Shown here one piece after another: positions 1 to 53,597 of a stretch of 64,000 bases of DNA. The notes beneath the pieces are model-generated. The model was not told the origin of the DNA, did not search any database, and saw only the letters and a program-made list of their open reading frames with translations. A program made the translations under genes and the position numbers. The DNA lies in NCBI GenBank assembly GCA_025812035.1, contig GCA_025812035.1_4719.1. One strand, written 5' to 3'. Source of the stretch: a phage. Position 1 is the stretch's first letter. Each line of letters starts with the position of its first letter.

Positions 1-50
1 AAAAAAAAAAAAAATGATAGCCACGGACTCTCCAATGAAGGAGAGCCGTG
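1..50 (-). terminator. intrinsic terminator (hairpin 22-50 plus U14 tract)
   Basis: Inverted repeat CACGGACTCTCC/GGAGAGCCGTG directly 3' of the 60-761 stop, followed on the minus strand by 14 T (plus-strand A1-A14). Confidence 0.7.
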
Positions 51-59
51 ACCGTCAAT

Positions 60-761
60 TTAAGATGCAGATAATCTAGCGTACTTCTGGCGAACATGGT
101 TCTTACGGCGAACTTCGTCATCCTCGTTGCGCCATTCGAGATAAGCGACGAATCGACGTAATTGTGCTGCAGTCATCGTTGACGATCGGTCTTCTACATC
201 TAGAATGATGTAACGAATGTCGCCAGCGCCATCGCATTCAACATAACGGAATACCAGAAGACCGTTATCGTATTCAATGATAATAACTTCGAATCGTTTC
301 TCGAACAAATAAAACAGTTCAGATTCAATGATCATCGGAATGACGTATTTATCATCGTGATCGATGATTTTCATCATCACCCGTAACGCACGAGGAGTAT
401 GACGAGCGAACTGCCCATTAAATCGCTGTCTCATCGTTTGTTCCACGTCGTCTGTTTTTGTCCCAAGCCAGGGACGTATGACAGATTTCGGTGGCGTAAG
501 TCGGCATCGGTACGCTTGTATAAACAACAGAATATCGGCGACATTAGGAAATTCATCCTGGTCTTTGTAAAGCTGTCGGATAATATCCGGGATCGTATTC
601 AACAAATATTTCTTATCGCCTCCCACTTTCTCGAGATTAGCAACATGTCCTTCTACCACTGGCTGATAAACGAAATTATACCAGTGACGGTATCTTGCAG
701 CACGTCGGTAGTTCGGGATAAAATTAAGAACGGTATTCATTGCGCGTTTTAATGGGTTCAT
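60..761 (-). CDS. hypothetical protein (233 aa)
   Basis: Long ORF ending in TAA, followed on the minus strand by a hairpin and a 14-nt T-run terminator. No motif recognised. Confidence 0.6.
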   Translation of the reverse strand: MNPLKRAMNTVLNFIPNYRRAARYRHWYNFVYQPVVEGHVANLEKVGGDKKYLLNTIPDIIRQLYKDQDEFPNVADILLFIQAYRCRLTPPKSVIRPWLGTKTDDVEQTMRQRFNGQFARHTPRALRVMMKIIDHDDKYVIPMIIESELFYLFEKRFEVIIIEYDNGLLVFRYVECDGAGDIRYIILDVEDRSSTMTAAQLRRFVAYLEWRNEDDEVRRKNHVRQKYARLSAS

Positions 762-775
762 CAGAAGGATCCTCC

Positions 776-1210
776 TTATGTTTTAATATGCACATCGTCA
801 ATCCCCTCGGTAATCCAGCCGATGGGAAGGACGATCGTTGTTATCGTGTTATGGGTGTAATGATTAAGAAAATGGAAATAGTAATTTGTGTTGGATTGCT
901 CGATGCGTAGGTCGAGCTGTGCGTCTTCAGGTAACCGTAACCAAGCACCGTACAGTTCGTTAAACTTACGCTGAATTTTACCGGGGCTCATTGGAACCCC
1001 TCGACCACGGTGGTGTAGCTGACGCAATGATTCAATTAAACACTCAGAGATACCCGTTGTCGTTCCGTTGTCGCTCGCATCGACAACAATGAACTCTCGT
1101 GACCCACGACCGAGATAAAATCCAGCAACAAAAACAACGGCGGTAACGACAATCGTGCCAATACCTACGTACCAATAGTAAACGTCCATAGCGGCCTCAC
1201 TTAGACCCAA
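776..1210 (-). CDS. small membrane protein (N-terminal transmembrane helix)
   Basis: ORF with hydrophobic segment IGTIVVTAVVFVAGFYL near the N-terminus. Confidence 0.55.
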   Translation of the reverse strand: MGLSEAAMDVYYWYVGIGTIVVTAVVFVAGFYLGRGSREFIVVDASDNGTTTGISECLIESLRQLHHRGRGVPMSPGKIQRKFNELYGAWLRLPEDAQLDLRIEQSNTNYYFHFLNHYTHNTITTIVLPIGWITEGIDDVHIKT

Positions 1211-1734
1211 TAATCAGCAAGTGGTTTTACCTTGTTGATGGGCAGATAAACTTTGCCAATATTTTCCATATAAGCATCGATATAAAGAACGACGCTATCT
1301 ACGCTTCTCTCCCAACGTATTACGAAGCGATCGGGAAGAAGATTCCCTTGTTCAAGCGATGCTGTAACCTGCTGTGTTAAAACAGACAACCAAGCCGGTG
1401 TTAGTGTCGCGATATCTAATTCGTTCGACCATTCAGCACGTTGCTCCACCGGGCGTAACATCCGTTGAACGGTGCGTTGAACGGTCGCAGTGATATAACC
1501 CTTATCTTCGTCACAGATCAGGTTCGGACGAGCCACAAAACGCTCAGCAGGTTTGTGGGTGATATGTTCATGCAATTCGATGAGTGGTGTTGTCATAGTA
1601 CTCGCTCCATCATGTTGTAATCGGGTAACCCGCAGGGTTGTATGCATGGTGTTCAGAAGCGCAAAAGCACCACCAGTAACAACGACACCAAGTACAACCA
1701 AAACAGAAATCATTAACGTGTATTGCATTACCAT
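1201..1734 (-). CDS. small membrane protein (N-terminal transmembrane helix)
   Basis: ORF with hydrophobic segment LMISVLVVLGVVVTGGAFALL. Its stop overlaps the start of the downstream gene by 10 nt. Confidence 0.55.
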   Translation of the reverse strand: MVMQYTLMISVLVVLGVVVTGGAFALLNTMHTTLRVTRLQHDGASTMTTPLIELHEHITHKPAERFVARPNLICDEDKGYITATVQRTVQRMLRPVEQRAEWSNELDIATLTPAWLSVLTQQVTASLEQGNLLPDRFVIRWERSVDSVVLYIDAYMENIGKVYLPINKVKPLADYWV

Positions 1735-1829
1735 CTCCTATTCATACGCATCTTGAAGATTAGTTAAAATCAACAAAAGAAAAAACGTTATAGAGCAAGG
1801 TCCTCTGATATCAGAGGACCTTGGATCAA

Positions 1830-2486
1830 TTAGCTTGCGGCTTCTTCATTTGTTTCAGGTTTGCTTCCCCCTAACAAACCGTCGAACAGACCCGTATGTT
1901 TCAGGTAGAAGAGAGCGATAGCGCCCATCGCCGCTGCGCTCGTTGCTGTTAACGCAACCCCGGCACGATACTGCCATTTACGGTCAGGCTTTTGATCAAG
2001 CGCCATACGACGCATGTATTCAGCCTCTGCTTCATTCCGATGGATTTCGGATTCTGCCAGACGGGCTAAGGTATCGCGGTCAAGGTTAGCATAACGTGCG
2101 TTCATGGTGATTTCCTCTTGTTTGGAAGTTGATTGCTTAGTGAATTCTTGGTCAACAGTCGTTTCGGTTGGTTCAAACGGCTGGTTGTTCATTTTCTGGT
2201 TGTTATTAGACATGATAGACTCCTTCGATTTTTGAGATGAAATTGATTTAAACCATCGTGGGTGGCGATATTCGGTTTTACAGGTACAGTTAAGTTTCTC
2301 GTGTAGTATTGCGTAAAAACGTTTTGCGCCTACACGTAAGGCTTTCAGCATTACCCATCCACGAGCACTCAAACGGTGTAGTTGTTGCGGTATATCAAGT
2401 TTCCTAGCCAAGCGAAAGTATCTCTCAATCACTTCGATAGGAAACCATTGTTGTTCCACATCGGTGAGACTGAAAGTCCTATCCAT
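1830..2486 (-). CDS. hypothetical protein with C-terminal transmembrane segment
   Basis: ORF track gives 1830-2513, but that start is GTG and overlaps the conserved motif. The first ATG is at 2486. C-terminal hydrophobic stretch VALTATSAAAMGAIALFYL. Confidence 0.5.
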   Translation of the reverse strand: MDRTFSLTDVEQQWFPIEVIERYFRLARKLDIPQQLHRLSARGWVMLKALRVGAKRFYAILHEKLNCTCKTEYRHPRWFKSISSQKSKESIMSNNNQKMNNQPFEPTETTVDQEFTKQSTSKQEEITMNARYANLDRDTLARLAESEIHRNEAEAEYMRRMALDQKPDRKWQYRAGVALTATSAAAMGAIALFYLKHTGLFDGLLGGSKPETNEEAAS

Positions 2487-2510
2487 GATTGAAATCTCGC
2501 TGGCTTGCTT

Positions 2511-2534
2511 CACCTAGGTAATATAGCCGTGAAA
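2511..2534. promoter_or_regulatory. conserved 24-nt motif CACCTAGGTAATATAGCCGTGAAA (copy 1 of 4), candidate phage promoter
   Basis: Near-identical copies at 17192, 45348 and 53508. Here it lies in the divergent region between the 1830-2486 (-) gene and the 2636-4099 (+) operon. Confidence 0.45.
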
Positions 2535-2635
2535 AATGTTGGAGTACATCGAATTCCATCATCGTGGCTATTTTATGGGCTAAGAGCCTAAACCAATCAT
2601 CTTCGGAATCATCATCTACGAAATAGGAACCTATC

Positions 2636-3457
2636 ATGGATAAAGTATTTGTTTGTAAGCTGTTTACTAACGGCAATAGCCAACCGATGTATCTGACCGA
2701 TCCTGTTCTGGGTAATCGAAACAGCACCGTATTCAAAGAAGCTATCGATTACGCCAAAAACAAAGCCGTGAGAACACTGACGTCCGATGACTGTGTCAAT
2801 GGTATCACGTGGGCAGAGTTATTAGGTGATGCTGTTAGACACTTCGTTCGGGATGCAAGAAAACAGGAAATCAGCCTCACGACTATTGTTGTGCGTGAAA
2901 ACGCAGAAATTTTATCAAACGTTTTGGTTGATTTTAATGACGTTTACGTGTTTAATCCAGAGAACACTTTTGAGCAATACCTTGCCGCCCTGAACAAACA
3001 GCTTGATAAAGATGTTCATCCCGAATTCGCCAAGTTAACGTATCAAGTGCTTTTTGATGACGTTGATCCGAATACGAAGATCAGTACCAGCTTATCGTCC
3101 CTGGTAAAGAAATACGGATCGGTTATTGCTACGGCAACACCCACCACCGACGGTAGTTATGATATCGAATTGGATGGTCCGTTAAAAGAACAGGAACCTA
3201 CTGGAGTTCGGGCAATACAGCATAACCTCGTCGTTAAATCCGATGGTTGCGATGAGCATTACGCTATGACAAACGATGTAAACAATTACCGTTTAAGTCA
3301 AGCGATTGGTGTTCTGCGTTATACTGAACCAACCGTTGTAGACGATCATACATCGACAACGACGCATACAACGTGTTACATTTTCATTTACCCTAATGAA
3401 AGTGTGTATATTACTGACTGCTACGGCAACACCGTAGATAGCTTGCGTCGCTGTTAA
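2636..3457 (+). CDS. hypothetical protein (273 aa)
   Basis: Long ORF with TAA stop, followed by a canonical terminator. Confidence 0.6.
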   Translation: MDKVFVCKLFTNGNSQPMYLTDPVLGNRNSTVFKEAIDYAKNKAVRTLTSDDCVNGITWAELLGDAVRHFVRDARKQEISLTTIVVRENAEILSNVLVDFNDVYVFNPENTFEQYLAALNKQLDKDVHPEFAKLTYQVLFDDVDPNTKISTSLSSLVKKYGSVIATATPTTDGSYDIELDGPLKEQEPTGVRAIQHNLVVKSDGCDEHYAMTNDVNNYRLSQAIGVLRYTEPTVVDDHTSTTTHTTCYIFIYPNESVYITDCYGNTVDSLRRC

Positions 3458-3462
3458 ACATC

Positions 3463-3490
3463 AAGCCTGTCCTTCGGGGCAGGCTTTTAT
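3463..3490 (+). terminator. canonical rho-independent terminator (10-bp stem, UUCG tetraloop, U-tract)
   Basis: AAGCCTGTCC-TTCG-GGGCAGGCTT followed by TTTAT, 6 nt after the stop of 2636-3457. Confidence 0.7.
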
Positions 3491-3564
3491 GCTGTTATTA
3501 TTGGGAATAAGAATTAACAAAACAGGAAGATGGTGTGGATATAACACAAAGGAGGGAAATGATT

Positions 3565-3681
3565 ATGTTACTCATTCTAATGGAGAGAGCATTGCTGGCG
3601 GGTATATGCGCATTCTCTGTTAAACACGCTGTTACTATCATGACTGAAGAAAGGCGTAATACGCATAATGTATTACGCTGA
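3565..3681 (+). CDS. putative small hydrophobic peptide (38 aa)
   Basis: SD AAGGAGGG sits 8 nt upstream of the ATG. Translation is MLLILMERALLAGICAFSVKHAVTIMTEERRNTHNVLR. Too short for the ORF track. Confidence 0.3.
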   Translation: MLLILMERALLAGICAFSVKHAVTIMTEERRNTHNVLR

Positions 3682-3790
3682 AAACGCTGTCTGCATTAGT
3701 GTATGACGAGAAATCGTCGAGGCCCCCGTCTTCACGAGGGCCAACACCTATGCGCGATTATTTACCATTCACTAAACAAAGGTTATAAAC

Positions 3791-4099
3791 ATGAGCAATT
3801 TGAATGTTGAATTTACTTCAACAACACCTGTCATGAATGGCGTTGGTACTGAAACCAAGATCGTATTAGAACCCATTCCTGGTTTACGTGATCTCGGTGA
3901 TTTTTACCAACTGATGCCACGTATACGGAAAGCCTTAAACAGCATCGATCTTGATTCTGATAAAGATTTCCAACACGATACCGAAAATTCCGATCATACG
4001 TTGCTACCATCAGGGGTAGCAAAATTCACCTACACGCAAACATTGAAAGCCTCTGATGGTGAAATCCGTCGTTTTATCGTTGAAGTAGAAAGCGCATAA
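3791..4099 (+). CDS. hypothetical protein (102 aa)
   Basis: ORF with TAA stop, followed by a conserved family hairpin. Confidence 0.55.
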   Translation: MSNLNVEFTSTTPVMNGVGTETKIVLEPIPGLRDLGDFYQLMPRIRKALNSIDLDSDKDFQHDTENSDHTLLPSGVAKFTYTQTLKASDGEIRRFIVEVESA

Positions 4100-4104
4100 A
4101 AACC

Positions 4105-4134
4105 ATCCTCCCAACCCGTAAGGGAAGGGAGGAT
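4105..4134. terminator. conserved two-tier GC hairpin (family copy 1), putative bidirectional terminator
   Basis: ATCCTCCC-AACCCGTAAGGGAA-GGGAGGAT at a convergent gene junction. Confidence 0.55.
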
Positions 4135-4152
4135 GAAATATGCCGTTAAACG

Positions 4153-4794
4153 TTATTCAGCAAACCCTGCATTCAACAGATTGTCGTAAACACGATTAGC
4201 GACATCACTAGGAGAATGTGTGTTACTGGTGTCTATACATAGCGTTTTTGCGTCGCCGAGATAGTCCATAAAATCCATGTAACGATAACGTCGTTTATTG
4301 AATGTCGCTTCATCGATGTTATCAAACATCTGATGTTTAGCGTGACGAACACGGAATCGTCTTAAATACGTAGGATAGTCGATATCCAGATAAACGTAGT
4401 AAGACGGCATGATGATCGACGGCAGGTTCGGTAACAACGCATCAAACAACTTGACGTTAGCATCATTAACCTGATAAACGTACGTCGAAGCAACCGAACG
4501 ATCGCTAAGCACGGTCTTCCCTTCGTTGAGGGCTGGATGAATCACCTTGTTGAAGAGATGATTACGTTGCGACATCATCGCCAACAGCTCAGTTTCCGGA
4601 TCGAATCTGTTTGTTGGTGTTTGGTCTTCCAGGATAAGTTTACGAATTGCTTCTCCGTAGAGAGTACCACCGGGTTCACGTACAACACAGACATTGTTTA
4701 AACGGCTGTGTAAAGACGAGATAACCGAACTCTTTCCTGAATAATCCAAACCTTCAATAACGATATACTTATTACGAGACATTCCCCGCTCCAA
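4153..4794 (-). CDS. tmk: thymidylate (dTMP) kinase
   Basis: P-loop YIVIEGLDYSGKSS, REPGGT motif and DRS motif align with the N-terminal half of bacterial Tmk. Confidence 0.85.
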   Translation of the reverse strand: MERGMSRNKYIVIEGLDYSGKSSVISSLHSRLNNVCVVREPGGTLYGEAIRKLILEDQTPTNRFDPETELLAMMSQRNHLFNKVIHPALNEGKTVLSDRSVASTYVYQVNDANVKLFDALLPNLPSIIMPSYYVYLDIDYPTYLRRFRVRHAKHQMFDNIDEATFNKRRYRYMDFMDYLGDAKTLCIDTSNTHSPSDVANRVYDNLLNAGFAE

Positions 4795-4798
4795 TTAA

Positions 4799-6025
4799 CT
4801 ACTTCGTTTTTGCCGCCAACGGCTGCGATACTGTAATCTCTACCCGATTCTCATCGGTACGTTTAACGGTGATAAGGCTGCGTTCATCGCCGAATGGTTC
4901 TGCTACCTTGGAAGCCTCTTTAAGATTTTCAAGAATCTCGCCAGAGGGTTCAAACACCGCGAAACCGGAGCTAGTGTCAGTTCTTATTAAACCTACGCGC
5001 GTACCATTTACGGTAATGATGTCGTCCGTCTTGAACCCGCAGCAGGAGGGTAGACAGAACTGGCCGTTAACGCAATTAGCTAGGTATGCCTCACCGCCGA
5101 ACATTTCTATTAACGTTACCGGTTTAAATGTTTTCTCTGGGAAAGCGCTATTAAGGGTATCGTTTCCATTCACGAACCAGATCGTTACTTTATCTTCAGA
5201 ATACTCTAGTCTGTACGGCTGGGTTGCGGACGCTTGCGCTTTATGCTGATTAAATAACTTTGATTTCGTCGCAATCACAACACGACCTTCAGCATCAAAG
5301 TACAGAACTTCATATCCAACACATCCGATAAACACGCGACGGTTATTAAGTTCCGGAATTCTGACTAATAACGCATCACGGTTATAAGTAGGAATGATGC
5401 CCCGTAGGATGATCGATTCGTTGTTCAATGTTGCATTGCTCGCGACGATGCTTCGCATTGCCGCTGGCGTCAGTATTTTATCTGCTGTAGGTTTAAGTTG
5501 CTCCGCTGTTACAGTCATGGATCTATCTTCGTTTTCAACTGGCCAGTTGAAAACGATTGTTTTATTAAGACAAACAATTGGGGTAATTTCGCCGATACTC
5601 CGTATCTTGACTGAGGGGAAATTGCACACATACGGAACAAAAACATCAATATCGCTGGTCGCTTCTTCAAGCATGCTAGCATACGCCATTGCTTCGGGAC
5701 GATCGGTGAGATGAATAACAGCATAGACGATATCGTCTTTTAACCACGCATGTTTCACTCGTCCTATAACACGATTGGTGTCTACAATAACTCTCTGAGC
5801 TTTCATCTCCCATTTTACTGCATCAGTACCACCCGCAACCACATTCGGTTTATCCGCGTTTACACGATGAAGGAAACTATTGATTATTTCCTCATTGATC
5901 TGGATATCCTTTCTCGCAAAATTCAACAGCGGAATAACGAACTCATTGTTACCGCACTTCACTGCTCCGCGAATGATAGGAGTACACTTCTTGTTCTCAT
6001 CTGATCCCCAGATAACTTTAGTCAT
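4799..6025 (-). CDS. hypothetical protein (~408 aa)
   Basis: ORF track start is GTG at 6052. The ATG at 6025 has SD GAAGGA. Stop is TAG. No motif recognised. Confidence 0.6.
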   Translation of the reverse strand: MTKVIWGSDENKKCTPIIRGAVKCGNNEFVIPLLNFARKDIQINEEIINSFLHRVNADKPNVVAGGTDAVKWEMKAQRVIVDTNRVIGRVKHAWLKDDIVYAVIHLTDRPEAMAYASMLEEATSDIDVFVPYVCNFPSVKIRSIGEITPIVCLNKTIVFNWPVENEDRSMTVTAEQLKPTADKILTPAAMRSIVASNATLNNESIILRGIIPTYNRDALLVRIPELNNRRVFIGCVGYEVLYFDAEGRVVIATKSKLFNQHKAQASATQPYRLEYSEDKVTIWFVNGNDTLNSAFPEKTFKPVTLIEMFGGEAYLANCVNGQFCLPSCCGFKTDDIITVNGTRVGLIRTDTSSGFAVFEPSGEILENLKEASKVAEPFGDERSLITVKRTDENRVEITVSQPLAAKTK

Positions 6026-6058
6026 TTTCTGTTTCCTTCTTGGGTTTTGCACAAGTTT

Positions 6059-6700
6059 CTAACGGCGTTTTGTACCAACCTTCCCATTTCGATGGTCATC
6101 AAGAATACGCCATTCTTCGAACAGGAGTTCAGCAGCGAAATAACCTACGGCAATGCTGTCTATCGCATGCTCATCAAGATTCGCTAACACAACACCATTC
6201 TTGGGTGTGATGTTCATGAGGTTCAATACTTTCTGGCGAACATCGTCCTTACCAACGCGGGACGTCATGATCCCAACGGCACGTTTTGCGCTTCGGTTAT
6301 CAACCCCTAAGAAAGACACCGTAGGGTCAAAATCAATAACCGTTGTCTGAATCGCTGAAAACAGTTCACTGAGCGCCATACCGCTTTGCTTGAAACGACC
6401 GATGAACGGTGTCTCACAAGCAACCGCTTGTGGCTGGTACTCTTGCAATAACGTTGTCAGCGAACGACGATGTTCTTGGATACGTGCGGCACGATTACCA
6501 TACCCAAGTGCAATATCGCCATCAGGATCATACCGACGGGAGGCGTGCCATGTCCCCGCATACAGCAGTTCAATATCTTCGACACGCACATCCAAACGCA
6601 GTAACGACGCACCGAGCGTATCGGTGCCGGGGTCGATTGCCAGAATATCGTAAGCGTATTCTGGTGGAATCATGGCGTTACAACAGCCTCCACCGACCAT
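6059..6700 (-). CDS. RuvC-like Holliday junction resolvase
   Basis: LAIDPGTDTLG (first catalytic Asp), ACE (Glu) and DEHAIDSIAVG (C-terminal Asp pair) match the RuvC layout. Stop is TAG. Confidence 0.75.
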   Translation of the reverse strand: MVGGGCCNAMIPPEYAYDILAIDPGTDTLGASLLRLDVRVEDIELLYAGTWHASRRYDPDGDIALGYGNRAARIQEHRRSLTTLLQEYQPQAVACETPFIGRFKQSGMALSELFSAIQTTVIDFDPTVSFLGVDNRSAKRAVGIMTSRVGKDDVRQKVLNLMNITPKNGVVLANLDEHAIDSIAVGYFAAELLFEEWRILDDHRNGKVGTKRR

Positions 6701-7488
6701 GGGAAGGTTTTCGCAATAACGCCTTCCAGGAAGCGCTCAACTTCGGATTGCTCGTATACCGAAAGCTTTTCAAACGGCGTTTGGTCTTCGGTTAAACCCA
6801 CCGCATGAATAGGACCCAGATCTTTAACCAGGGTGACTTCGCCTTTAACGCCTTCACGTTTAACGATGACGGCGTGGTCATTGACCTTAGGATCGTACAG
6901 TACACGCATCATGGTTACCGCATCATTCGGTTCATAACCGAAATCGATAGCAACACGAGCACTCGTCCCTTCTTCATCCAAGAGCTTGCTCAACGCTTTA
7001 CAGCGGTCTTCAATCCAATCCAACGCCACCGCGGTTTCTTGGCGTAGCTGAACCTCAACCTCTTTTCCTTGTTCATCGATACGTTTCACGGTAACAAAAT
7101 CATGCAATAAACGATCCGGAAGGAGAGAAGCGATAAGCTCAACGTTTGGTTCAGGTTTCTCGTTTTCCAGAATGATGGTCGCTTGTGCGTCCAGATGTTC
7201 TTTAAAACGGATGTAGCGCGTTAATCGCAGAACCTCGTCTTGGGATTTTGCGTCTTCGGGGATAATCTCCGTCATGACGTTATAGATCTTTTCAGCGAAC
7301 GTCGGAATTACGGTGATGGTAATTCGTGCTGGTGTGCCACGCTCTTGGTACTCATCGGCTAACTTCTTCGCCATCCCGTTAAAGTAGGTCTGAAGAAACG
7401 GTTGTTGCGTTAGAAACATTTTCTCCAAATCGGAATAGCGATGCTTGCGTGCATGACCTAGCTTCTTCATAGGCTTTTTCATCAACAT
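6670..7488 (-). CDS. hypothetical protein (272 aa)
   Basis: Long ORF in the recombination module. No motif recognised. Confidence 0.55.
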   Translation of the reverse strand: MLMKKPMKKLGHARKHRYSDLEKMFLTQQPFLQTYFNGMAKKLADEYQERGTPARITITVIPTFAEKIYNVMTEIIPEDAKSQDEVLRLTRYIRFKEHLDAQATIILENEKPEPNVELIASLLPDRLLHDFVTVKRIDEQGKEVEVQLRQETAVALDWIEDRCKALSKLLDEEGTSARVAIDFGYEPNDAVTMMRVLYDPKVNDHAVIVKREGVKGEVTLVKDLGPIHAVGLTEDQTPFEKLSVYEQSEVERFLEGVIAKTFPWSVEAVVTP

Positions 7489-7503
7489 AAATCCTTATTT
7501 ATC

Positions 7504-9960
7504 TTAAATAATCGTGACGTGTTCGTTATACGTTTCAGGGAGGATGATATTCGTTTTATCAAGAACCATACACTCAGCTTTACGGAATGATGCATGGTTG
7601 ATGACATAATGGCTGATGAACCATACTTGGCTTACACGGTGACCATCAACCAAACGACGAACAAAATCCATGGCATTAGATTGGTGTTGCGGATCAAATG
7701 TTGATGCGAATTCATCCAGCATCAAGGGATAATCCGTAAACCCTTTGTAATGCATCATCGCGATGATGAACGCGATATTGATAATTTCCTTTTGCCCCTT
7801 ACTCCCATAAACAATATCTTTTCGCGGTGTCGGATACTTCTCGGTTAGAAGCGGGAAACGATAATTCAATCCTTGCGCATCGATAGCACAAGGGAGTATC
7901 TGAAGTTGGTATTCCCAAATACTCGCAATGATGCCGTTCATGTATTCGACGAACGCGTTGATTGGACCAGCGATTGTTTCAGCAATCAGGCCGTTAGATG
8001 GACTTAACTCATCCAGAACAAGCTGTGCGTAACTGAGCTGTTCTTCCACCTCTTTTTGCGTTGTTTCCAGCTGAGCCAAAAGCTGTTGGTCGGTTTTAGC
8101 TTCCTGTAACTGCTGTTCGACATGGCTTATTCTGCGAACCGTATCAGACATCGCAGCGCGTAACGATTTCGTGTAGAGGTGCTGTAGATATTCTAACCAC
8201 AGTTGCGTTAACGCTTTGTCGCTATTATCCGAACGTACCTGATCTTCCATAATCGCCGTGATGGTTTCCAATCTACCTTCCGTAGCCGTAATGGCTTGCG
8301 TTAACCGTTCAACGGTCGTTAGCAACTCCGTCCTGTTCTTATAAAGCAGTTCTCGGCGTTGCTGTAATGGTTCAACATCGACAGCTTGCACACGTTCGAG
8401 CATGCCTTGAAGATGCTTCCGTTCTTGTTCGGCTTGGGTGTAACGCGCAAGCTTCTCAAATGCGAGCAGCCAATCATTAATGATTCCAATACTGCGAAAC
8501 CCTAATCCGTTTTTACGTCCTTCTTCCAGCAGATTGTCCCACATGGGTTTAATGGCGTAATAATCTTTCGTCCAACGTGTTAACTGACGATGCTGCTCCA
8601 TCCAAAGCGTATAACGCTGAACCTTCTCACTCAGCTCAGCTAACGACTTCTCTTGTTCTTCAACCCAAGCACGGCCCTTCTGAATACGTTGTTCGATGCC
8701 TGCTTTGCTGGTCTTTTCCGTTTCACCAACATGAAAGCGATAATTGCATTTTGGACAGCTGGTCTGCGGCTGATGATTCAGATGATCGAGATGCGCCTCT
8801 AAATCAGCTAACGCATGTTTCGCGTTACGTAAGCGCATTCTTGCTGCCTCTTCCTCCTTGATGTAAGCTTCGGCATCGTAAACGTGGTAGGTATTATCGG
8901 TATCAATCCATTCTTGCAGTAATTCCGTTAACGGAGCCTGAACTTGCGTGAGCTGCTGTAAGCAAACCACGGCATCCAGATTCATCGTTAAAAGCTCGCC
9001 CGGATGGTCTTGTTGGAGTTGTTCGTCCAAACGTGCAAGGCGGGCTTTAATTTGATCGATATCACCTTCTCCAGACTGTTTCAACTGGTCAAGGATATTA
9101 TCAATGCCCAGCAATTCATCAACCTGACTTTCGAGTTTCGCATTCGCATTCGCGAGCTGTTCTCTTAATTCAGCCAGATTCTGCTGTTCTTGCTGTGACG
9201 TTCCTCCTTGATAACGAACAACCGCATGAAGAAGCTCGCGATTAAAATGATGGGCACGTTGTGCGGATTCCAGAAGCTGTCGTTGATCAACATCGCTATC
9301 GAATAACGGCAATCCCATCATCGCTTCGAGCGCTGAGCGCTGCTGTTTTAGTTCTGCTTCCAACCCCTGGTGGTCGGTTCCTGTGTATTTCGCTTCAATT
9401 CGCTGTGATGTTTCAACCAGTTTATTCAGTGTATGTTCATTCACCGCTTTCAGTGAACGTACTTGTTGCTTAACAACCTGGAACAGCTCAAGCGCATAAT
9501 CGACATTAACTGGACATATCTGTGTTAGTCGTTCACGACGTTTCATCGGCCCCATTTCAGTGAACTGGTAAGCCGTTTCGTAACCTAACAACAAACGAAT
9601 GGTGTCATCATTAAGTTCGAAATGTTCTTCAATTAGTTTCCATTGAGCGGGTTGTGTGCCGCCGCCATTCAGGTTCTCGCTGTCGTTAACGTAGAACTCA
9701 TGCTTAAACCCTTTTTCTAAACGACTGATAAGACGGTATTGTTTGTTACGATGTTCACAGCGGTACTCGTAATACCCGTCTTTATCAAAATCCGCACGTT
9801 CAGGAACGGTCGGATACAACAAAGGCAGCAGACTACTCTTACCCGAACCATTGCTACCTAAAATGAGTTGTACGGGATTATCTGGCCGGATGACCAGCTC
9901 CCGAATCATCCCGGTATCAAAACGATTGAATCCACGTAAGTGGAGATAGGTGCATCGCAT
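7504..9960 (-). CDS. Rad50/SbcC-like SMC-type ATPase
   Basis: Walker A GSNGSGKSS, long coiled-coil, CPKC zinc-hook-like motif, and C-terminal YGSKGQKE signature plus LMLDEF Walker B. ORF track start is 10023; the ATG at 9960 gives the typical MRCTYLHLRGFNRF N-terminus. Confidence 0.7.
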   Translation of the reverse strand: MRCTYLHLRGFNRFDTGMIRELVIRPDNPVQLILGSNGSGKSSLLPLLYPTVPERADFDKDGYYEYRCEHRNKQYRLISRLEKGFKHEFYVNDSENLNGGGTQPAQWKLIEEHFELNDDTIRLLLGYETAYQFTEMGPMKRRERLTQICPVNVDYALELFQVVKQQVRSLKAVNEHTLNKLVETSQRIEAKYTGTDHQGLEAELKQQRSALEAMMGLPLFDSDVDQRQLLESAQRAHHFNRELLHAVVRYQGGTSQQEQQNLAELREQLANANAKLESQVDELLGIDNILDQLKQSGEGDIDQIKARLARLDEQLQQDHPGELLTMNLDAVVCLQQLTQVQAPLTELLQEWIDTDNTYHVYDAEAYIKEEEAARMRLRNAKHALADLEAHLDHLNHQPQTSCPKCNYRFHVGETEKTSKAGIEQRIQKGRAWVEEQEKSLAELSEKVQRYTLWMEQHRQLTRWTKDYYAIKPMWDNLLEEGRKNGLGFRSIGIINDWLLAFEKLARYTQAEQERKHLQGMLERVQAVDVEPLQQRRELLYKNRTELLTTVERLTQAITATEGRLETITAIMEDQVRSDNSDKALTQLWLEYLQHLYTKSLRAAMSDTVRRISHVEQQLQEAKTDQQLLAQLETTQKEVEEQLSYAQLVLDELSPSNGLIAETIAGPINAFVEYMNGIIASIWEYQLQILPCAIDAQGLNYRFPLLTEKYPTPRKDIVYGSKGQKEIINIAFIIAMMHYKGFTDYPLMLDEFASTFDPQHQSNAMDFVRRLVDGHRVSQVWFISHYVINHASFRKAECMVLDKTNIILPETYNEHVTII

Positions 9961-10074
9961 GCTATGATAATCCTTCTTCGATACCTTCTGAACCACGGGT
10001 TCAGAATGCGAAGCTGAAGCCATACTTCAGCGTTATTTTCTATATCGTTATTTAAATCAGTAGGAGATTACAGC

Positions 10075-11163
10075 ATGAGCGATCTGGCAACAGACAATCG
10101 CACAAAAGGGAGTCAGCTGGCTCCAGATAGCAACGTAAGCGTTTTCCGTATCTTTGCCTTGGGTACTGTTGCTGCTGACTTTTCCAATAAAAGCCTGGAG
10201 GAAGATCCTAATCAGGCGCTGGAGGTCTTTCTTGACGAAATGATGTCAGGTGCTGATGGGAAAGTTGAAGCGGCGGGAAGCGTTAAAGAAGTCAGTGCAA
10301 CAGACGCTCAAGGGAACAGTTATACAGCGAAAGCGGCAACAACAACCAGTGTACAGTGTTATTGGTTACCCTTTGGCAGTAACCGGATGACGGCCCCTAA
10401 CTTGAGGAAAGGTCAGCGTGTAGTGGTCTGGCGTACCGCAGATGAAGAACAGCTGTACTGGCAACCCAAAGGAGGGGATAGTGAGCTGATGACCATGGAA
10501 TCGGTTATCCTGACCGTCAGCGCACGTCCTAACGCTAAGAAGGACCGTAAATCGATTTCAACGGAAGACTGCTATTACCTAATGGTTGACACCTTCCTTA
10601 AGAAAGCAGTTATCGGCACCAGCGCACAGCTTGGTGAAGTTACCCAGGTCTACATGGAACTTAATCTGGACGAGGGTTACTTACAGGTTGCGGACAGCGT
10701 CCATCAAAACCTACTATTGCTCCATTTCGTTGAACATATGCTGCGATATCAAAACCAGGACGACAGCATCATCGACGTGACAAAAAAGAACATCACATTC
10801 CAATGCGAGGATACGCTCAAAGCAATCGCTAAGAACGATATCCGAATGAAAGCCAAAAACATTTATACGGAATGTGAAAACTTCGAACGTGTCAGTAAAA
10901 CAGAAAGCGTTACGAGTCAGAATGTTTCTTTGAAATGCGATCGCTACGCCGCGCAAGTATCAGGACAGACCACGTTCAAATGTCCTAACACGGTATTCAC
11001 AGGAGCTGTGAGCTTCACCGGTGAAGACGGAAACACGATGACGTTGAACGGGAACTTCATCCATATCGCAGGATCGTGGCGTTCACCAAGCGGAACAAAC
11101 GTATACACCCACGACCATGGTGGCGTTAAATCCGGTAGCAGTAGAACCGACCCGTTCCAATAA
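10075..11163 (+). CDS. putative baseplate central spike (gpV-like), C-terminal HxH motif
   Basis: Central region resembles an OB-fold spike domain. The C-terminus ends in THDHGG, like the iron-binding HxH apex of P2 gpV-type spikes. Motif-level only. Confidence 0.4.
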   Translation: MSDLATDNRTKGSQLAPDSNVSVFRIFALGTVAADFSNKSLEEDPNQALEVFLDEMMSGADGKVEAAGSVKEVSATDAQGNSYTAKAATTTSVQCYWLPFGSNRMTAPNLRKGQRVVVWRTADEEQLYWQPKGGDSELMTMESVILTVSARPNAKKDRKSISTEDCYYLMVDTFLKKAVIGTSAQLGEVTQVYMELNLDEGYLQVADSVHQNLLLLHFVEHMLRYQNQDDSIIDVTKKNITFQCEDTLKAIAKNDIRMKAKNIYTECENFERVSKTESVTSQNVSLKCDRYAAQVSGQTTFKCPNTVFTGAVSFTGEDGNTMTLNGNFIHIAGSWRSPSGTNVYTHDHGGVKSGSSRTDPFQ

Positions 11164-16074: not shown

Positions 16075-16333
16075 CTAATTGCTCCCGTTGTTCTTTTAAG
16101 TATGCGGGAAGCTGGTCTTCCCGTACCGTTCCGATTTCTAACATGATGTACCAGCGTTGTTCGGAAGCCTGCCATTGAAAACTGCTCTGTAAACGTAGGA
16201 TGCTAGGATCATGTACCTTGCTTGCGCTGTAACGGTTGAACCAGCCCAGGTAAGCGGCTTTCCCCTCCTCATCGGCAACGTAACGCTGCACGCTGTTCTT
16301 CCCTTTGTTTTCGTATCCTGTTGCATGTATCAT
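16043..16333 (-). CDS. hypothetical small protein (~96 aa)
   Basis: ATG at 16333 overlaps the upstream stop as ATGA. ORF track gives 16043-16390. Confidence 0.5.
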   Translation of the reverse strand: MIHATGYENKGKNSVQRYVADEEGKAAYLGWFNRYSASKVHDPSILRLQSSFQWQASEQRWYIMLEIGTVREDQLPAYLKEQREQLDVLFSHHRGS

Positions 16334-17106
16334 GCGAACGTTTCTCCTGTAACGTGTTGTGGGCGTTGCAGCATGGTAGCATCCCAGCATACCAGCTTGC
16401 TTTTCTCAAGCATCTTCCGCGCCGTATCAACGCTAACGCCAGGATGCATGACAGGTAGCCAACGTTCGTTAAGCACCTTGGCTTCCAGGCGTTGCTTGCG
16501 CTTATTGTATTGTACCTCGCTAACCCATGCGTAACCGAAAGGATGGATAACCCGTGGGTAGTAACGTTTAAGCATCATCAGTCTTTGCTGATAAAGCTTA
16601 TCGGAACCCTCACCAACGAATAAGGCAACCCGTTCCAACCGCTTGGTGTAATACGTTCCGGTGGTATGATTGATCCAACCAGGAAGCGTTCGTACATCAT
16701 TTTCGAGTGTTCCTGATACGTTATGCACTTCACCGCTATACACCGTCCCAACAACCTGATTCGTTGCGTCCACCATCGACCGTGGCAAAGCATCCGCGGT
16801 AGGATACAACCATGCATCCCCAAGCTGCTCTCCCGACGCAAGTACCCGTAATCCGCTTGCGCTCACCCGCAACGGATGCTGGCTCTTATGCGCACGCAAC
16901 TGCACCACAGATAAGTCTACCGGATGGGCGATGCAACAGCCACGCTGACGGAACAGTCCAACCTCACCATCCACCCCTTCGATCATGCTTCCTTCCGAAC
17001 CGTTCCACCAACGTTTAACCTTCACGCATTCGGCTTGCACCGTTTCAGGCAACGTTAAATAATCGTGTTCAATAAACACCACATCAAAAATCAATGCTTC
17101 TTTCAT
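16330..17106 (-). CDS. paralog family H protein C (unknown function)
   Basis: Single HPFGY motif and related C-terminus. SD AGAGGA upstream. Confidence 0.65.
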   Translation of the reverse strand: MKEALIFDVVFIEHDYLTLPETVQAECVKVKRWWNGSEGSMIEGVDGEVGLFRQRGCCIAHPVDLSVVQLRAHKSQHPLRVSASGLRVLASGEQLGDAWLYPTADALPRSMVDATNQVVGTVYSGEVHNVSGTLENDVRTLPGWINHTTGTYYTKRLERVALFVGEGSDKLYQQRLMMLKRYYPRVIHPFGYAWVSEVQYNKRKQRLEAKVLNERWLPVMHPGVSVDTARKMLEKSKLVCWDATMLQRPQHVTGETFA

Positions 17107-17191
17107 CTAAAAAGATCCTCTGTTTTTTCACGTTAATTAAACAACGTATTGATTTCTATTCGATAGCAATACGAACATCGTACGTACGCAT

Positions 17192-17215
17192 CACTTAGGT
17201 AATATAGCCGTGAAA
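17192..17215. promoter_or_regulatory. conserved 24-nt motif (copy 2; CACTTAGGTAATATAGCCGTGAAA)
   Basis: One mismatch to the consensus. About 90 nt from the start of 16330-17106. Confidence 0.45.
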
Positions 17216-17858
17216 GGATTTGTGTTACAGAAAGGGTTTTGTTGTGTTTTAAGAAGGGATGGATAGTGATGTTATCTGAAAGGAGGATTTCAAGAAAGGT
17301 CTTGATTGAAGTAGGTGGAGTAAGTGAAGAGGTGAATAAACGAGAAGGGTTAGTTTGGTTGATGTAAGATGTTATCTTGTTATTGTTTTCATGTTTATCT
17401 TAGGTTATGTCTTAATTGTTCATATTCCTGATTGTTTAAGTTGTCTTATTTATCTTGTTTATATAAATAAAATTAAATTATAAAGTCAATCAACATGCTT
17501 ATAAGTTGGATAACTCAAAAAAACCATTTGTGATACTCTTCTTCACGTTGTTCATCAGAGTATCTCGTCTATACTCATTGCATTCGTATACGACATAACC
17601 GTTATACGCTAACGCTACGCTTATAGCTTGATAACTCTAAGGATAAAAACATAAACTCGCTTCGCTCGTTTAGTTTTTCTTTTTCTTAGAGTTATCTTGT
17701 TGCTCGTCTCTAAAGGACTTCGCTCCTCCCCCGTCCCCCGAAGGGGCCGAGGTCGTGGAAATTTTACTTTCCAAATACATTTACAACATCTGTAAACTTT
17801 TACTCCAGGTACTTAATCTTATCATTAGAAATTATCAAAGAGAATAATGACAGCATAA
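17216..17858. other. large noncoding region: candidate replication origin or noncoding RNA locus
   Basis: No ORF. C-depleted purine-rich stretch, AT-rich block (17455-17490), and five or more TTATCTT-type repeats. Confidence 0.35.
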
Positions 17859-41891: not shown

Positions 41892-43691
41892 TCAATCGAT
41901 TATGTCACGATCGTTAATTTCTACAATTTCTTCATCGAATCGACCGACGTCTTTCTTCAAGCCTGCATTTGTTGCTGCAACGTCATTTGCAATTTGTGGG
42001 GTAACGATTAACCGACCACGCTCGTCGATAGGTGCGTACATACTGAACTTCTGACGTCCGGTTGGTTCGGAGTGTGGAAGATTCAGATAGCTCGCACAGA
42101 ACGGGATGGAACCACTAACCAAACGACTCTCGTCAGCCAACGCAGCACCGCCTGCGTTTTGGCTCTGGAGAACAACATGCGTGCTCACTTTGAACAGCAT
42201 GCAATCACCCGGTGACTGAATCGATGTTGCCACTTTCTCACGCTTATCACGATTGCTCTGGATATTGAGAATCGCTTCTGTTGCAACTTGATTTCGCAAC
42301 GCCTTCTGTACATCGCGATTGGTCATCTCTTTACGGTTGTTCTGTCGTTTACCACGTTCTGTGGTTTTAAGATGGAACCCCAGTTTAAAGATGCTCTTAC
42401 GCACATCCTCCATGACATATTCCAACACCATCAATTCCTTACCGAACATCGTCGTGGTATCAACACGACTCATTTCGATAGTAACATTGTCAATCAGATA
42501 CGCCATAAATTCGTAGAAGTCATCGCAAGGAATATTTTCCTGTTTGAACTTCTTCTGCTGAATTTCGTCGACGTAAAGATCAAGGCTATCGATGTGGTGG
42601 TTTACATCACGCAACAAACGCGCATCCGCGTTGTTGTTATTAAAGATAATCAAACCGAGTAATGTACGCCAATGGTCTGGCGCATTAGCGAACTCTTCAA
42701 CCGGATAGTCTTCCGGAAAACGATCGTAATAGCGGTCGATGAGATACAAGAACGCACCGACAAGGCCAAGAACAATACGTTCCGTGCCTCCACGTCTTAC
42801 AGCAATTTGAATATCAGGATGTTTATAACGTACAGCGTTAGCGCTACGGCTTTTACCGCTCTTACTAATACTAAAGCCTTTAGGAATAACCCCCATGGTG
42901 CGATAGATTACCCATTGGTCGCGCGGAAAATCGCGTTCAGCAAGATTCCGTCCGGTTACCGCTTCGACACCCGCGAAACGTCGGAAACATTCACCTACCC
43001 CGTACTTCGCAAAGAGATAGTGACCCAATGTGGTTACACTGGTGTGGTTGATGTTGTCACCGTTCACTTTACTTTGTTTGGTAAGATGATAGATTTGCGA
43101 CCAGGGTAACGATAGATAGTGACGATAATCGACACCGGTTGGAGTATCATTACTCAGGAACTGATACGGCGTACGTTTAACTGTGATTTTGTCACGCGGA
43201 AGCATGATGAACGCCATGTCTTTCGTGTAACTGATTACAGGGTCAGCGAGTACCGCACTGAGAATAAAGTTTGCACCACGTAGACGCATTTTACCACCCT
43301 GCCCTACTGCGGGTAATAGGAGAGGGTGTCGGATAATGCAGTAGTCCTTTCCTGGTTCACGACGGTCACCTGATTCCATCGCGCCATACCAGCGGAATTC
43401 TAACATCACCATAAACACATCGGACGGCGCAAGGTCAAAGGTCAGCTTACCGCTATCCTTCCCTTTGGTTTTCTTTCCTCCGCTTAAGTAGTGAAACTGT
43501 TCGCGGGCCACACAACGACGTAGGCCATGATACACCAGATCCTTAGGTAAACTATCTTTGCTGTTCCGCCAAAGACGATCAACATAGGACTCAACATCTT
43601 GCATCTTATCGACGACGATGTTGCGCGCTATCTTCTCGTTCATCTTCGGTGCAAGCCCAGCGACAGCTTTGCAGAATCTAGGATCCATCAC
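41892..43691 (-). CDS. hypothetical protein (599 aa)
   Basis: Long ORF. No motif recognised. Confidence 0.6.
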   Translation of the reverse strand: MMDPRFCKAVAGLAPKMNEKIARNIVVDKMQDVESYVDRLWRNSKDSLPKDLVYHGLRRCVAREQFHYLSGGKKTKGKDSGKLTFDLAPSDVFMVMLEFRWYGAMESGDRREPGKDYCIIRHPLLLPAVGQGGKMRLRGANFILSAVLADPVISYTKDMAFIMLPRDKITVKRTPYQFLSNDTPTGVDYRHYLSLPWSQIYHLTKQSKVNGDNINHTSVTTLGHYLFAKYGVGECFRRFAGVEAVTGRNLAERDFPRDQWVIYRTMGVIPKGFSISKSGKSRSANAVRYKHPDIQIAVRRGGTERIVLGLVGAFLYLIDRYYDRFPEDYPVEEFANAPDHWRTLLGLIIFNNNNADARLLRDVNHHIDSLDLYVDEIQQKKFKQENIPCDDFYEFMAYLIDNVTIEMSRVDTTTMFGKELMVLEYVMEDVRKSIFKLGFHLKTTERGKRQNNRKEMTNRDVQKALRNQVATEAILNIQSNRDKREKVATSIQSPGDCMLFKVSTHVVLQSQNAGGAALADESRLVSGSIPFCASYLNLPHSEPTGRQKFSMYAPIDERGRLIVTPQIANDVAATNAGLKKDVGRFDEEIVEINDRDIID

Positions 43692-43727: not shown

Positions 43728-45203
43728 TTACTTTTTCGATGAAGCTTTCTCAAGAATCTTGAAAAAGGTCATACCTATACCAACAACGGCCGCGGTTATA
43801 CTCGCAGCGGCTTTCCAGACATCGACGTTACGTTGACGTCGCGCTTCTTCCGCTTCGCGTTGTCTTTTTGCTTCATCATCACGACGGCGTAGCTCAGTTG
43901 TGAATTCATCGTGCTTACGTTTCGCGTCCTCGTCTCGGCGACGCATTTCAGCGATAAGCTCATCATGCTTACGTTTTGCCTCTTCATCACGACGTTTAAG
44001 TTCAGCTTGATGTTCTTCTCGTATTTGTTTACGAAGATCATCTTGACGTTTCATTTCGGCTTGGTGGTGTTCCATCCTACGTTCAGTATCGTCTTTAAGC
44101 TGTTTAACAATTTCCGCATGTTGCTTATTTTGTCGTTCCGCATCGGTTTTATACAATTCGTGTAATTGCTTTATTTCCGATGCGTGAGCGTCAGCCTGTC
44201 GTTTCATTTCGTTGGTATGATCGACCTGCAGTTGCTTTATTTCAGCCATCAGCCCTTTAAGGGTTTCTTCTGTTGACTTACGTTCATAGCTACGTTGGTC
44301 GAAATCATTTTTGTAGGCTTCTTTTTGGATGGGGTCGCGCCAATGCAATGCCGATTCACGTGTCGGAAAAACATTGTACTTCCACATCTCTTTTTCCAAA
44401 TCTTCGACCGGTACGAAGACGGAGTCATTATTCCCGAAGGTAACCAACATACCTGGCGCGCCTGCTCCATTCGTTGGTTTTATTTCGAACGCTTTTCCCA
44501 GAACGTTAACCCATAAGCTATACGGATTATGAAAGTCTGGTGGCGTCCAATGGATAGTGAGTTGCGTTCCGAGAATCCGGAAACCCTCTGTTTTTCCCGT
44601 CAAGCTTCGCGCACACGTTGCGATGTAGGGGTGATCAATCCCTTTCGTAACGTGGTCTGCGCTTTTGTATTCTCCTTTAACTTTTACGACTGCCACGTTG
44701 ATTTGCGCGACATAAATAGGTTGATTAAAGTTCAACGTGTTGAGGTCAATTTGGCATACTTCATCCAGCGTATCGTACCAGTCTTGCTGGTCTAATAGAC
44801 GCGGTATTTTCTCCGTGTTAACGATGCGACGGATATGCGGTTTCCTTATCGCGTAACCTGTGCCGTTTTTAACACGAAGTATATCCCGACGTCTACCCGC
44901 GTAGACGAAGTTTCTGAATGCACCATTCGCATTAGATACGTCATGGCTGTCAACTATTACAGGACTACGAAATTTTGAACGCCTTACGATCCTGAATGTA
45001 TTGCCGTCCTCAACCCTACCAGGAATGTACTGGAACATATTGTCGGAGGTGATAACCAACACGGTATGGTTGGATTCATTAATACACGCCCATCCTAATT
45101 CCAGGTCATATAACGGTTCAGCATAACCGTCAATGCGATATGCGTGCGTACCATCCCACGGTTCGAACGCGGTATCACATATTGGCATGGAGGGCATCGT
45201 CAA
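43728..45203 (-). CDS. tail-anchored membrane protein with charged coiled-coil repeats
   Basis: Globular N-terminal domain, about 150 aa of K/R/E/D-rich coiled coil including three 18-aa tandem repeats, then C-terminal hydrophobic anchor AAASITAAVVGIGMTFF. Confidence 0.65.
   Translation of the reverse strand: MTMPSMPICDTAFEPWDGTHAYRIDGYAEPLYDLELGWACINESNHTVLVITSDNMFQYIPGRVEDGNTFRIVRRSKFRSPVIVDSHDVSNANGAFRNFVYAGRRRDILRVKNGTGYAIRKPHIRRIVNTEKIPRLLDQQDWYDTLDEVCQIDLNTLNFNQPIYVAQINVAVVKVKGEYKSADHVTKGIDHPYIATCARSLTGKTEGFRILGTQLTIHWTPPDFHNPYSLWVNVLGKAFEIKPTNGAGAPGMLVTFGNNDSVFVPVEDLEKEMWKYNVFPTRESALHWRDPIQKEAYKNDFDQRSYERKSTEETLKGLMAEIKQLQVDHTNEMKRQADAHASEIKQLHELYKTDAERQNKQHAEIVKQLKDDTERRMEHHQAEMKRQDDLRKQIREEHQAELKRRDEEAKRKHDELIAEMRRRDEDAKRKHDEFTTELRRRDDEAKRQREAEEARRQRNVDVWKAAASITAAVVGIGMTFFKILEKASSKK
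43860..44020. repeat. three imperfect ~54-bp tandem repeats inside the 43728-45203 CDS
   Basis: Encode ELKRRDEEAKRKHDELIA / EMRRRDEDAKRKHDEFTT / ELRRRDDEAKRQREAEEA. Coordinates approximate. Confidence 0.5.
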
Positions 45204-45347
45204 CCTCCATCAGATTGAAAACTATCACGCATAATGCATTTCCCTTTTCTTGTTCTTATCGAGCCGACAGCCGACGGTTTCAGCATCGTTCCTAGCGCGA
45301 GAACGACCTTACGTGTTGTCTATGCCTTATTCATCGCAGGCGTCTGT

Positions 45348-45371
45348 CACCTAGGTAATGTAAGCGTCAAA
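45348..45371. promoter_or_regulatory. conserved 24-nt motif (copy 3; CACCTAGGTAATGTAAGCGTCAAA)
   Basis: Part of the ~90-bp cassette 45348-45437 with a family hairpin. Confidence 0.45.
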
Positions 45372-45403
45372 TTTTTTCTATTTGCAACGATAAACAGCAT
45401 AGA

Positions 45404-45437
45404 AGCCTCCCCCAACCCTTGCGGGCTGAGGGAGGCT
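45404..45437. terminator. conserved two-tier GC hairpin (family copy 8)
   Basis: AGCCTCCC ... GGGAGGCT, 3' of the 740-aa gene. Confidence 0.5.
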
Positions 45438-53451: not shown

Positions 53452-53507
53452 GATTGTATCCTCGGTTGTTAAGAGAAATTTACAGCGATAACAGTAACCG
53501 TTGTTAT

Positions 53508-53531
53508 CACCTAGGTAATATAGTCGTGAAA
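53508..53531. promoter_or_regulatory. conserved 24-nt motif (copy 4; CACCTAGGTAATATAGTCGTGAAA)
   Basis: Part of the ~90-bp cassette 53508-53597. Confidence 0.45.
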
Positions 53532-53565
53532 TAAACTGGATTAACAAGAATAAGACAGCATAGAA

Positions 53566-53597
53566 CCCTCTCCCAACCCATCAGGGAAGGGAGAGGG
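53566..53597. terminator. conserved two-tier GC hairpin (family copy 10)
   Basis: CCCTCTCCC-AACCCATCAGGGAA-GGGAGAGGG. Confidence 0.5.

Follow-up and report, generated by a model that had tools for sequence, protein, structure and literature searches.

Four predicted early promoters of a Goslar-like chimallivirus share the core and spacing of phiKZ virion RNA polymerase promoters

A repeated element found four times in a 64-kb stretch of phage DNA (hereafter the window) very probably constitutes a set of early promoters of a Goslar-like chimallivirus, recognised by a virion-packaged multisubunit RNA polymerase (vRNAP). The original prediction had proposed a phage-specific promoter unlike those of sigma70, and this proposal is borne out, as the core and spacing of the element match the phiKZ vRNAP early promoter. 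The evidence consists of the identity of core and spacing, the over-representation of the element, its orientation with respect to strand and gene, its conservation in relatives and its synteny. Chimallivirus vRNAP early promoters are a known class; they are newly described here for the Goslar lineage.

The window (positions 1-64000) is collinear with positions 43-60222 of vB_EcoM_Goslar, at ~89-93% identity, and two further relative contigs in IMG/VR are each ~90% identical to it. As none of the relatives compared, Goslar or IMG/VR, is an identical counterpart of the window, the window phage is another member of the Goslar lineage. Goslar is a nucleus-forming E. coli jumbo phage of 237 kb (Chimalliviridae) annotated with several beta/beta'-like RNA polymerase genes, including those of both the vRNAP and the non-virion polymerase (nvRNAP), and with chimallin and PhuZ; its gp196 is a vRNAP subunit (PMC10541120). 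One nvRNAP subunit homologue, which is PHIKZ123-like, lies inside the window. The other subunits are annotated in Goslar only, beyond the span of the window, and by analogy with Goslar the window phage would carry its vRNAP genes outside the window.

Four co-oriented copies of a 37-nt element

An exact match to the 24-nt motif occupies 2511-2534; copies with one mismatch lie at 17192-17215 and 53508-53531 and, as had been claimed, a copy with four mismatches at 45348-45371. Across 100 dinucleotide-preserving shuffles of the window, we found zero matches to the 24-mer. An independent repeat search of the window returned the same four sites as a 37-nt family (2510-2546, 17191-17227, 45347-45383 and 53507-53543). 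When we scanned the window with a position weight matrix (PWM) built from Goslar sites only, four sites scored 42-51 bits and the next-best position 7.2 bits; given this gap, the window contains exactly four copies. The length of 24 nt needs correction: the conserved block really extends from about -36 to +2, or 37-38 nt.

All four copies lie on the same strand, as originally described, 25-151 nt 5' of minus-strand start codons. The gene starts first assigned to copies 1, 2 and 4 (2486, 17106 and 53451) stand, but that of copy 3 (TTG, 45203) does not; the most likely start is the ATG at 45197, which carries a GGAGG Shine-Dalgarno sequence. Mechanically called open reading frames (ORFs) overlap copies 1 and 4. 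Conserved Shine-Dalgarno sequences and ATG codons at 2486 and 53451 place these two copies between genes, upholding the description of the repeats as intergenic.

The functional reading is on the minus strand, TTTCACGGC-TATATTAC-N6-GA. In copy 1 (2510..2546, minus), an upstream block reading GTACTCCAACATT (-36..-24), with an upstream half of class I, is followed by the -20 block TTTCACGGC (-23..-15, 2526-2534), the core TATATTAC (-14..-7, 2518-2525) and the spacer CTAGGT, with the predicted +1 G at 2511 and a 5'UTR of 25 nt to the ATG at 2486. Copy 2 (17191..17227, minus), also of class I, reads TTTCACGGC-TATATTAC-CTAAGT-GA; its predicted +1 G is at 17192, 86 nt from the ATG at 17106. Copy 3 (45347..45383, minus) belongs to the A-tract class II and reads AATAGAAAAAA-TTTGACGCT-TACATTAC-CTAGGT-GA, with its predicted +1 G at 45348 and a 5'UTR of 151 nt to the ATG at 45197. 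Its 25-nt motif is identical to Goslar 43251-43275, and the 37-nt block differs by a single substitution in its upstream part. Copy 4 (53507..53543, minus), again of class I, reads TTAATCCAGTTTA-TTTCACGAC-TATATTAC-CTAGGT-GA, and its predicted +1 G at 53508 leaves 57 nt to the ATG at 53451. The core is thus TATATTAC in copies 1, 2 and 4 and TACATTAC in copy 3, and at all four sites a G followed by an A stands six nucleotides past the core, where the sequence alone predicts the start. For none of the four predicted transcripts do the first 50 nt fold better than shuffled sequences (z from +0.72 to -1.38).

A further match at 12564, TACATTAC-N6-GA inside an ORF, was rejected, as it has no upstream blocks, scores -0.1 bits and is of a kind expected about once by chance. 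We also noted that CCTAGG occurs three times in the 64 kb (2513, 45350 and 53510) against ~13.6 times expected from base composition, and that all three occurrences fall in the spacers of copies 1, 3 and 4. Spacers of orthologous sites are often a different palindrome (CTTAAG), or not a palindrome.

Likeness to phiKZ early promoters and conservation in relatives

Jumbo phages with two multisubunit RNA polymerases have a bioinformatically obvious early motif read by the virion polymerase, with a core of ~10 nt near -10 (PMC7598289, PMC5312081). For phiKZ, 28-32 early promoters have been published (PMC8244752, PMC10914365), with the printed consensus tatattaaaaaaaatttaagatgTATATTACaaatgtG and consensus forms ending in TTTAAGATG-TATATTAC-AAATGT-G or AAAAAAAATTTAAGATG-TATATTAC-AAATGT-G (PMC12676376 supplement). 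In phiKZ and phiR1-37, transcription starts 6 nt downstream of the consensus element (PMC5312081, PMC7598289). In the phiKZ genome, we found TATATTAC 33 times on the plus strand versus 9 times on the minus strand. About 26 of these occurrences take the form TTTAAACAG/TTTAAGATC-TATATTAC-N6-G (TTTAAacag/TTTAAgatc) upstream of plus-strand genes, in agreement with the published promoters and with the printed consensus.

A PWM built from phiKZ sites only ranks the window copies 1-4 among ~128,000 positions: copy 1 at 22.5 bits, copy 2 at 14.2, copy 4 at 12.9 and copy 3 at 5.1. The next position scores 3.1 bits, and the background has a mean of -50.6 and a standard deviation of 11.9. The best Goslar match of the same matrix is the promoter before chmA, the nuclear-shell gene. 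With the 8-nt core masked, the phiKZ matrix is not discriminating, as only copy 1 appears in the top five; the likeness across genera therefore rests mainly on core, spacing, T-run and context.

The window sites and those of phiKZ share the 8-nt core TATATTAC, the 6-nt distance to G, a T-run at -23..-21 and two upstream flavours, A-tract or ATTCAAAC/AATCCAAC-like. In both, the sites are intergenic, co-oriented with downstream genes and preceded by terminators of the hairpin-TTATGYYGT type, and in both lineages they stand before chmA and before the capsid-adjacent nvRNAP operon. The -20 block differs, being TTTAAACAG or TTTAAGATC in phiKZ and the GC-rich TTTCACGGC here; published descriptions of early promoters, in contrast, stress AT-richness. 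Unlike phiKZ, the window and Goslar tolerate C or T at core position 3, and their spacer begins with YT. Copies are also sparser, at 4 in 64 kb (window) and 13 in 237 kb (Goslar), versus ~26-32 in 280 kb in phiKZ. Starts have been mapped in phiKZ, whereas those of the Goslar lineage are predicted from sequence.

Searching relatives for the motif, as had been suggested with the original prediction, yields 12 clear copies in Goslar plus one more degenerate copy. Predicted +1 positions of the clear sites, all on the minus strand, are 2553, 15053, 43252, 49718, 86691, 113783, 142786, 160777, 166055, 172964, 201930 and 226681. The degenerate copy has its predicted start at 187625, and its upstream block is mismatched at 7 of 9 positions. 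All Goslar copies lie on the coding (minus) strand, 50-150 nt 5' of start codons; the site with predicted start 172964 is 66 nt before chmA. The predicted start is a G at 13/13 Goslar sites, followed by A at 12/13, and strand counts for TA[CT]ATTAC-N6-G are 5:0 in the window and 14:0 in Goslar.

Into a logo went 24 non-identical sites, among them one chance match inside a gene (Goslar 1594). The logo shows conserved blocks at about -36..-28 (TAAt.CA or A-tract) and -23..-15 (TTTCACGrC), a TAYATTAC at -14..-7 that is invariant apart from Y, and GA at +1/+2; the six bases between core and +1 are variable. Consistent with this, aligned orthologous sites of four Goslar-like genomes carry their substitutions upstream of -37 and within the spacer (CCTAGG, CTTAAG, CTTACG, CCTTCA), and the core, the -20 block and +1 are unchanged. 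Matches to a 19-nt pattern in two other IMG/VR contigs (L013 and L014) were discarded as chance, since they lie inside a coding sequence of an unrelated phage and have no downstream G. Promoters of the Goslar lineage are neither annotated in the records nor described in the literature searched, which included the Goslar genome paper. A remark on a start "91 nt upstream" (PMC10541120) was set aside, as it appears to describe a displayed sequence and not a mapped 5' end.

Two observations concern individual orthologues. In IMGVR_UViG_3300011560_000001, the orthologue of copy 2 (~3040-3110) carries a 43-nt insertion duplicating a TTACCTTCATGATG segment, a partial tandem repeat of the 3' part of the promoter. 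In Goslar, gp047 (49584-49772, 62 aa) overlaps the homologue of promoter copy 4. Conservation of its ORF does not extend to the window (53447-53562), and a conserved Shine-Dalgarno sequence and ATG at this locus stand 3' of the promoter. Goslar gp047 is probably a mis-call.

Beyond the Goslar lineage, the chmA genes of Klebsiella phage Eowyn, Erwinia phage RAY, Ralstonia phage RSL2 and Proteus phage 10 also have TATATTAC-N6-G upstream; for PhiPA3 chmA, the sequence is TATATCAC. The early promoter of the Bacillus jumbo phage AR9 reads AAATATATATTAT-(6N)-G+1 (PMC5312081, PMC7598289) and, like the sites here, combines an AT-rich core containing TATATTA with a G(+1) six nucleotides downstream. It is recognised by a virion multisubunit polymerase, the type we infer for the window sites, with high sensitivity to deviations in the core (PMC5312081). 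AR9 differs in its uracil DNA, in a core that ends in T and not C, in its unrelated upstream blocks and in not being a chimallivirus, and one consensus-like AR9 site is silent (PMC5312081). In 201phi2-1, conserved -10, -20 and -30 regions lie upstream of hypothetical genes (PMC11512511), a tripartite layout also seen here; the comparison is with the described layout and not the sequence, and only six of the 201phi2-1 early promoters are read-supported, transcripts having been detected for not every bioinformatic early site (PMC11512511). The phiKZ nvRNAP late promoter (TATG, with G as +1 and no upstream consensus) was rejected as a model, since the window sites have a long upstream consensus and an NNTGA start context.

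Other readings of the repeats

Were the repeats instead promoters of host sigma70, the units would be transcribed early by E. coli RNA polymerase, with TATATT as the -10 hexamer. TATATT does equal TATAAT at 5/6 positions, and a consensus scan flags copy 2 (GTAACA-16-TATATT, 9/12). However, copy 2 alone reaches the scan threshold (9/12), the other copies having poor -35 hexamers at 16-18 nt, and conservation is strongest where sigma70 leaves sequence unconstrained: in the TTTCACG block of the spacer region, the AC after the hexamer and the fixed G. Promoter-like matches in 1-20000 number 30, versus 35.1 in shuffles. Infection of the phiKZ type is moreover independent of host RNA polymerase (PMC7598289), and Goslar DNA is enclosed in a vesicle together with the vRNAP (PMC10541120). 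We thus regard the sigma70 reading as very improbable. Scarcely easier to maintain, and still quite improbable, is a role as binding sites of a phage DNA-binding regulator, be it an operator, a genome-organising or an ejection-associated protein. Long conserved sequences at gene 5' ends and a spacer that is often a 6-bp palindrome (CCTAGG or CTTAAG) would suit such a protein, and the literature searched gives no description of the mode or the subunit by which the vRNAP recognises promoters. Yet the complete element is asymmetric and without exception oriented like the gene downstream of it, and the palindromic spacer is its least conserved part among orthologues. In addition, the homologous elements of phiKZ and AR9 have starts mapped 6 nt downstream, and the phiKZ consensus early promoter has already been used as a working expression element.

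A hint of a single-subunit RNA polymerase promoter in the original prediction does not survive, as the phage is a chimallivirus with multisubunit beta/beta'-like polymerases and the motif matches the phiKZ vRNAP core. The ~24-nt length of the motif is similar to that of T7/SP6 promoters, likewise phage-specific elements of ~20-25 nt that act independently of host sigma, and TAGGTGA resembles part of the SP6 promoter. But T7/SP6 promoters serve another type of polymerase, and the conserved part of the element lies upstream of TAGGTGA, a stretch that is variable spacer in relatives. The TATA-G(+1)GG initiation architecture is missing, a variable spacer standing directly before the predicted start. 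Among 15 window ORFs compared with Pfam, the ten largest included, we found no T7-like polymerase family, and none is annotated in Goslar. This reading is effectively refuted. Extremely improbable, too, is that the copies are duplicated remnants or targets of a mobile element or homing endonuclease with no transcriptional role, an alternative raised from the outset. Goslar does have HNH endonucleases and group I introns elsewhere, and gene content differs between relatives immediately after copies 2 and 4. Against this, the flanks of the four copies are unrelated beyond ~37 nt, all copies keep a consistent position and orientation relative to start codons, and the same core stands at orthologous positions in distant genera.

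The suggestion that copy 1 also drives the plus-strand operon 2636-4099 finds no support, as the asymmetric element is directed solely toward the gene that shares its strand. This holds for the 4 window sites, for the 12 clear and one degenerate Goslar sites and for the ~26 phiKZ sites. The plus-strand gene could use a late-type start in the TATG at 2573-2576, which reads TATA in Goslar.

Early units, terminators and upstream subclasses

On the minus strand, each site comprises an upstream block that is AATCCAAC-like or an A6-7 tract (about -36..-24), the -20 block TTTCACGrC, an invariant -10-region core TAYATTAC (-14..-7), a variable 6-nt spacer and G(+1)A. By analogy with phiKZ and AR9, co-injected vRNAP would bind these sites on the incoming genome, needing neither host RNA polymerase nor new protein synthesis; in Goslar, this early transcription would take place inside the early-infection (EPI) vesicle. 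RNA would start at the G six nucleotides past the core, and transcription would run leftward. For the acting polymerase, the exact start site and the early timing, this model draws on the homologous elements.

Copies 1, 2 and 4 would transcribe mostly variable hypothetical genes. The first gene of the copy-1 unit (1830..2486, minus) is a homologue of Goslar gp004 and that of the copy-2 unit (16330..17106, minus) of gp021, both hypothetical. Copy 4 is followed by 52672-53451 and 51684-52664 (both minus), which are absent from Goslar and are held in a 1.78-kb indel relative to it (51667-53447) directly after the copy. The genes after copies 1, 2 and 4, including 1830..2486, match no Pfam or PHROG family, and they occupy the parts of the window most diverged from Goslar; downstream of copy 2, 12537-17018 is strongly diverged. 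Such divergence and lack of family matches are typical of early accessory genes. Gene content differs from Goslar right after copies 4 (51667-53447) and 2 (12537-17018). Exchangeable gene cassettes seem to stand behind the early promoters.

Copy 3 would drive an operon with a subunit of the non-virion polymerase, which takes over later transcription. Its first long gene (43728..45197, minus) is a hypothetical homologue of Goslar gp040, and the second (41892..43691, minus) is homologous to PHIKZ123 and to Goslar gp039 ('polymerase'), its product matching PHIKZ123 at 3e-56 by BLASTP and phrog_2943 at 1.2e-119. In phiKZ, orf123 is among the nvRNAP subunits (PMC12676376). Copy 3 lies between the major capsid gene (45535-47757) and this operon, and the phiKZ promoter with core start 120657 lies between the capsid gene gp120 and gp121-123; the two occupy the same syntenic position. 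Likewise, phiKZ has an early promoter 80 nt before chmA, as Goslar has one before its own. An early-gene role is thus indicated by position, for the copy-3 operon (nvRNAP subunit) and for the Goslar site 172964 before chmA (shell gene). A two-polymerase cascade requires such an arrangement, with a vRNAP promoter in front of an nvRNAP subunit gene.

Two terminators of the phiKZ type stand next to the promoters. One (45394..45437, minus), a GC hairpin followed by TCTATGCTGT, ends the transcript of the major capsid gene ~10 nt upstream of copy 3; the other (53555..53597, minus), with the hairpin CCCTCTCCCTTCCC-TGAT-GGGTTGGGAGAGGG followed by TCTATGCTGT, lies immediately upstream of copy 4. These hairpins would insulate the early units from preceding, presumably late, transcripts. 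The published phiKZ terminator consensus is ...GGGRRGGBYTTATKYYGT (PMC10914365), and a GC hairpin with TCTATGCTGT is its Goslar-lineage version. Further members of the family lie at 3460-3495 (plus) and at ~58860-58900, 17850-17905 and 15136-15165 (minus), with related hairpins at 4108, 29832 and 50207. Family members combine a GC hairpin, in many cases CCTCCAACCC-GTAA-GGGAAGGAGG, with a following (T)TTATGCYGT, and hairpin-TTATGCTGT also occurs. These sequences suggest that chimallivirus genera have in common not only the early promoter but also a conserved termination signal.

Promoters of phiKZ and of the Goslar lineage alike divide by their upstream half into two subclasses, A-tract and ATTCAAAC/AATCCAAC. 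In both phages, A-tract sites stand before chmA and before the nvRNAP operon next to the capsid gene, window copy 3 included, and ATTCAAAC/AATCCAAC sites stand before variable hypothetical genes, window copies 1, 2 and 4 included; the Goslar site with predicted start 160777 is at least one exception. We raise only tentatively, and with some doubt, the idea that the division itself is conserved between phiKZ and Goslar, an A6-8 tract marking core early genes and ATTCAAAC/AATCCAAC variable ones. If true, vRNAP promoters would be of two kinds with distinct functions, for instance in strength, timing or order of exposure during ejection, and both would have been maintained since the phiKZ and Goslar genera diverged.

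The 4 window sites and the 12 clear and one degenerate Goslar sites provide a map of predicted early units for Goslar-type phages, which are now a main model in work on the phage nucleus and on the early-infection vesicle. They mark genes that are probably transcribed from the incoming genome ahead of nucleus formation, including lineage-variable cassettes that may be host-takeover or anti-defence genes. The compact element could be used for early expression of inserted genes, and the invariance of TATATTAC-N6-G from Pseudomonas to Escherichia phages constrains models of how sigma-less virion polymerases recognise DNA.

Several further features of the window were observed. The copy-3 leader (45198-45348, minus) is ~98% identical to Goslar against a local average of ~93%, and holds a 28-codon ORF (45200-45286, minus) with an AGGA Shine-Dalgarno-like sequence, a candidate for a small protein or a regulatory leader. 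The ~690 nt (17216-17905, minus) that separate a terminator hairpin from copy 2 contain no ORF of at least 50 aa; Goslar 14972-15825 is the same unannotated gap. Five of the window's ten minus-strand [AC]AGATAA[AC] motifs fall inside 17278-17698, and the gap also has an AT-rich block (17440-17500) and a GC hairpin (~17725-17750). It possibly contains iterons, an origin or a non-coding RNA; Rfam returned nothing for it, nor did the window as a whole match Rfam at the gathering threshold or give any hit in a tRNA scan. Finally, repeats with a period of 183 nt (61 codons) and 60-77% identity, at 21140-21990 and 26830-27890, sit inside the minus-strand genes 20543-22591 and 26279-28432, which correspond to Goslar YomR-like virion proteins. 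A Peptidase_S74 chaperone domain is present in 20543-22591, and from this domain and the repeats we conclude that the two products are repetitive fibre-like proteins.
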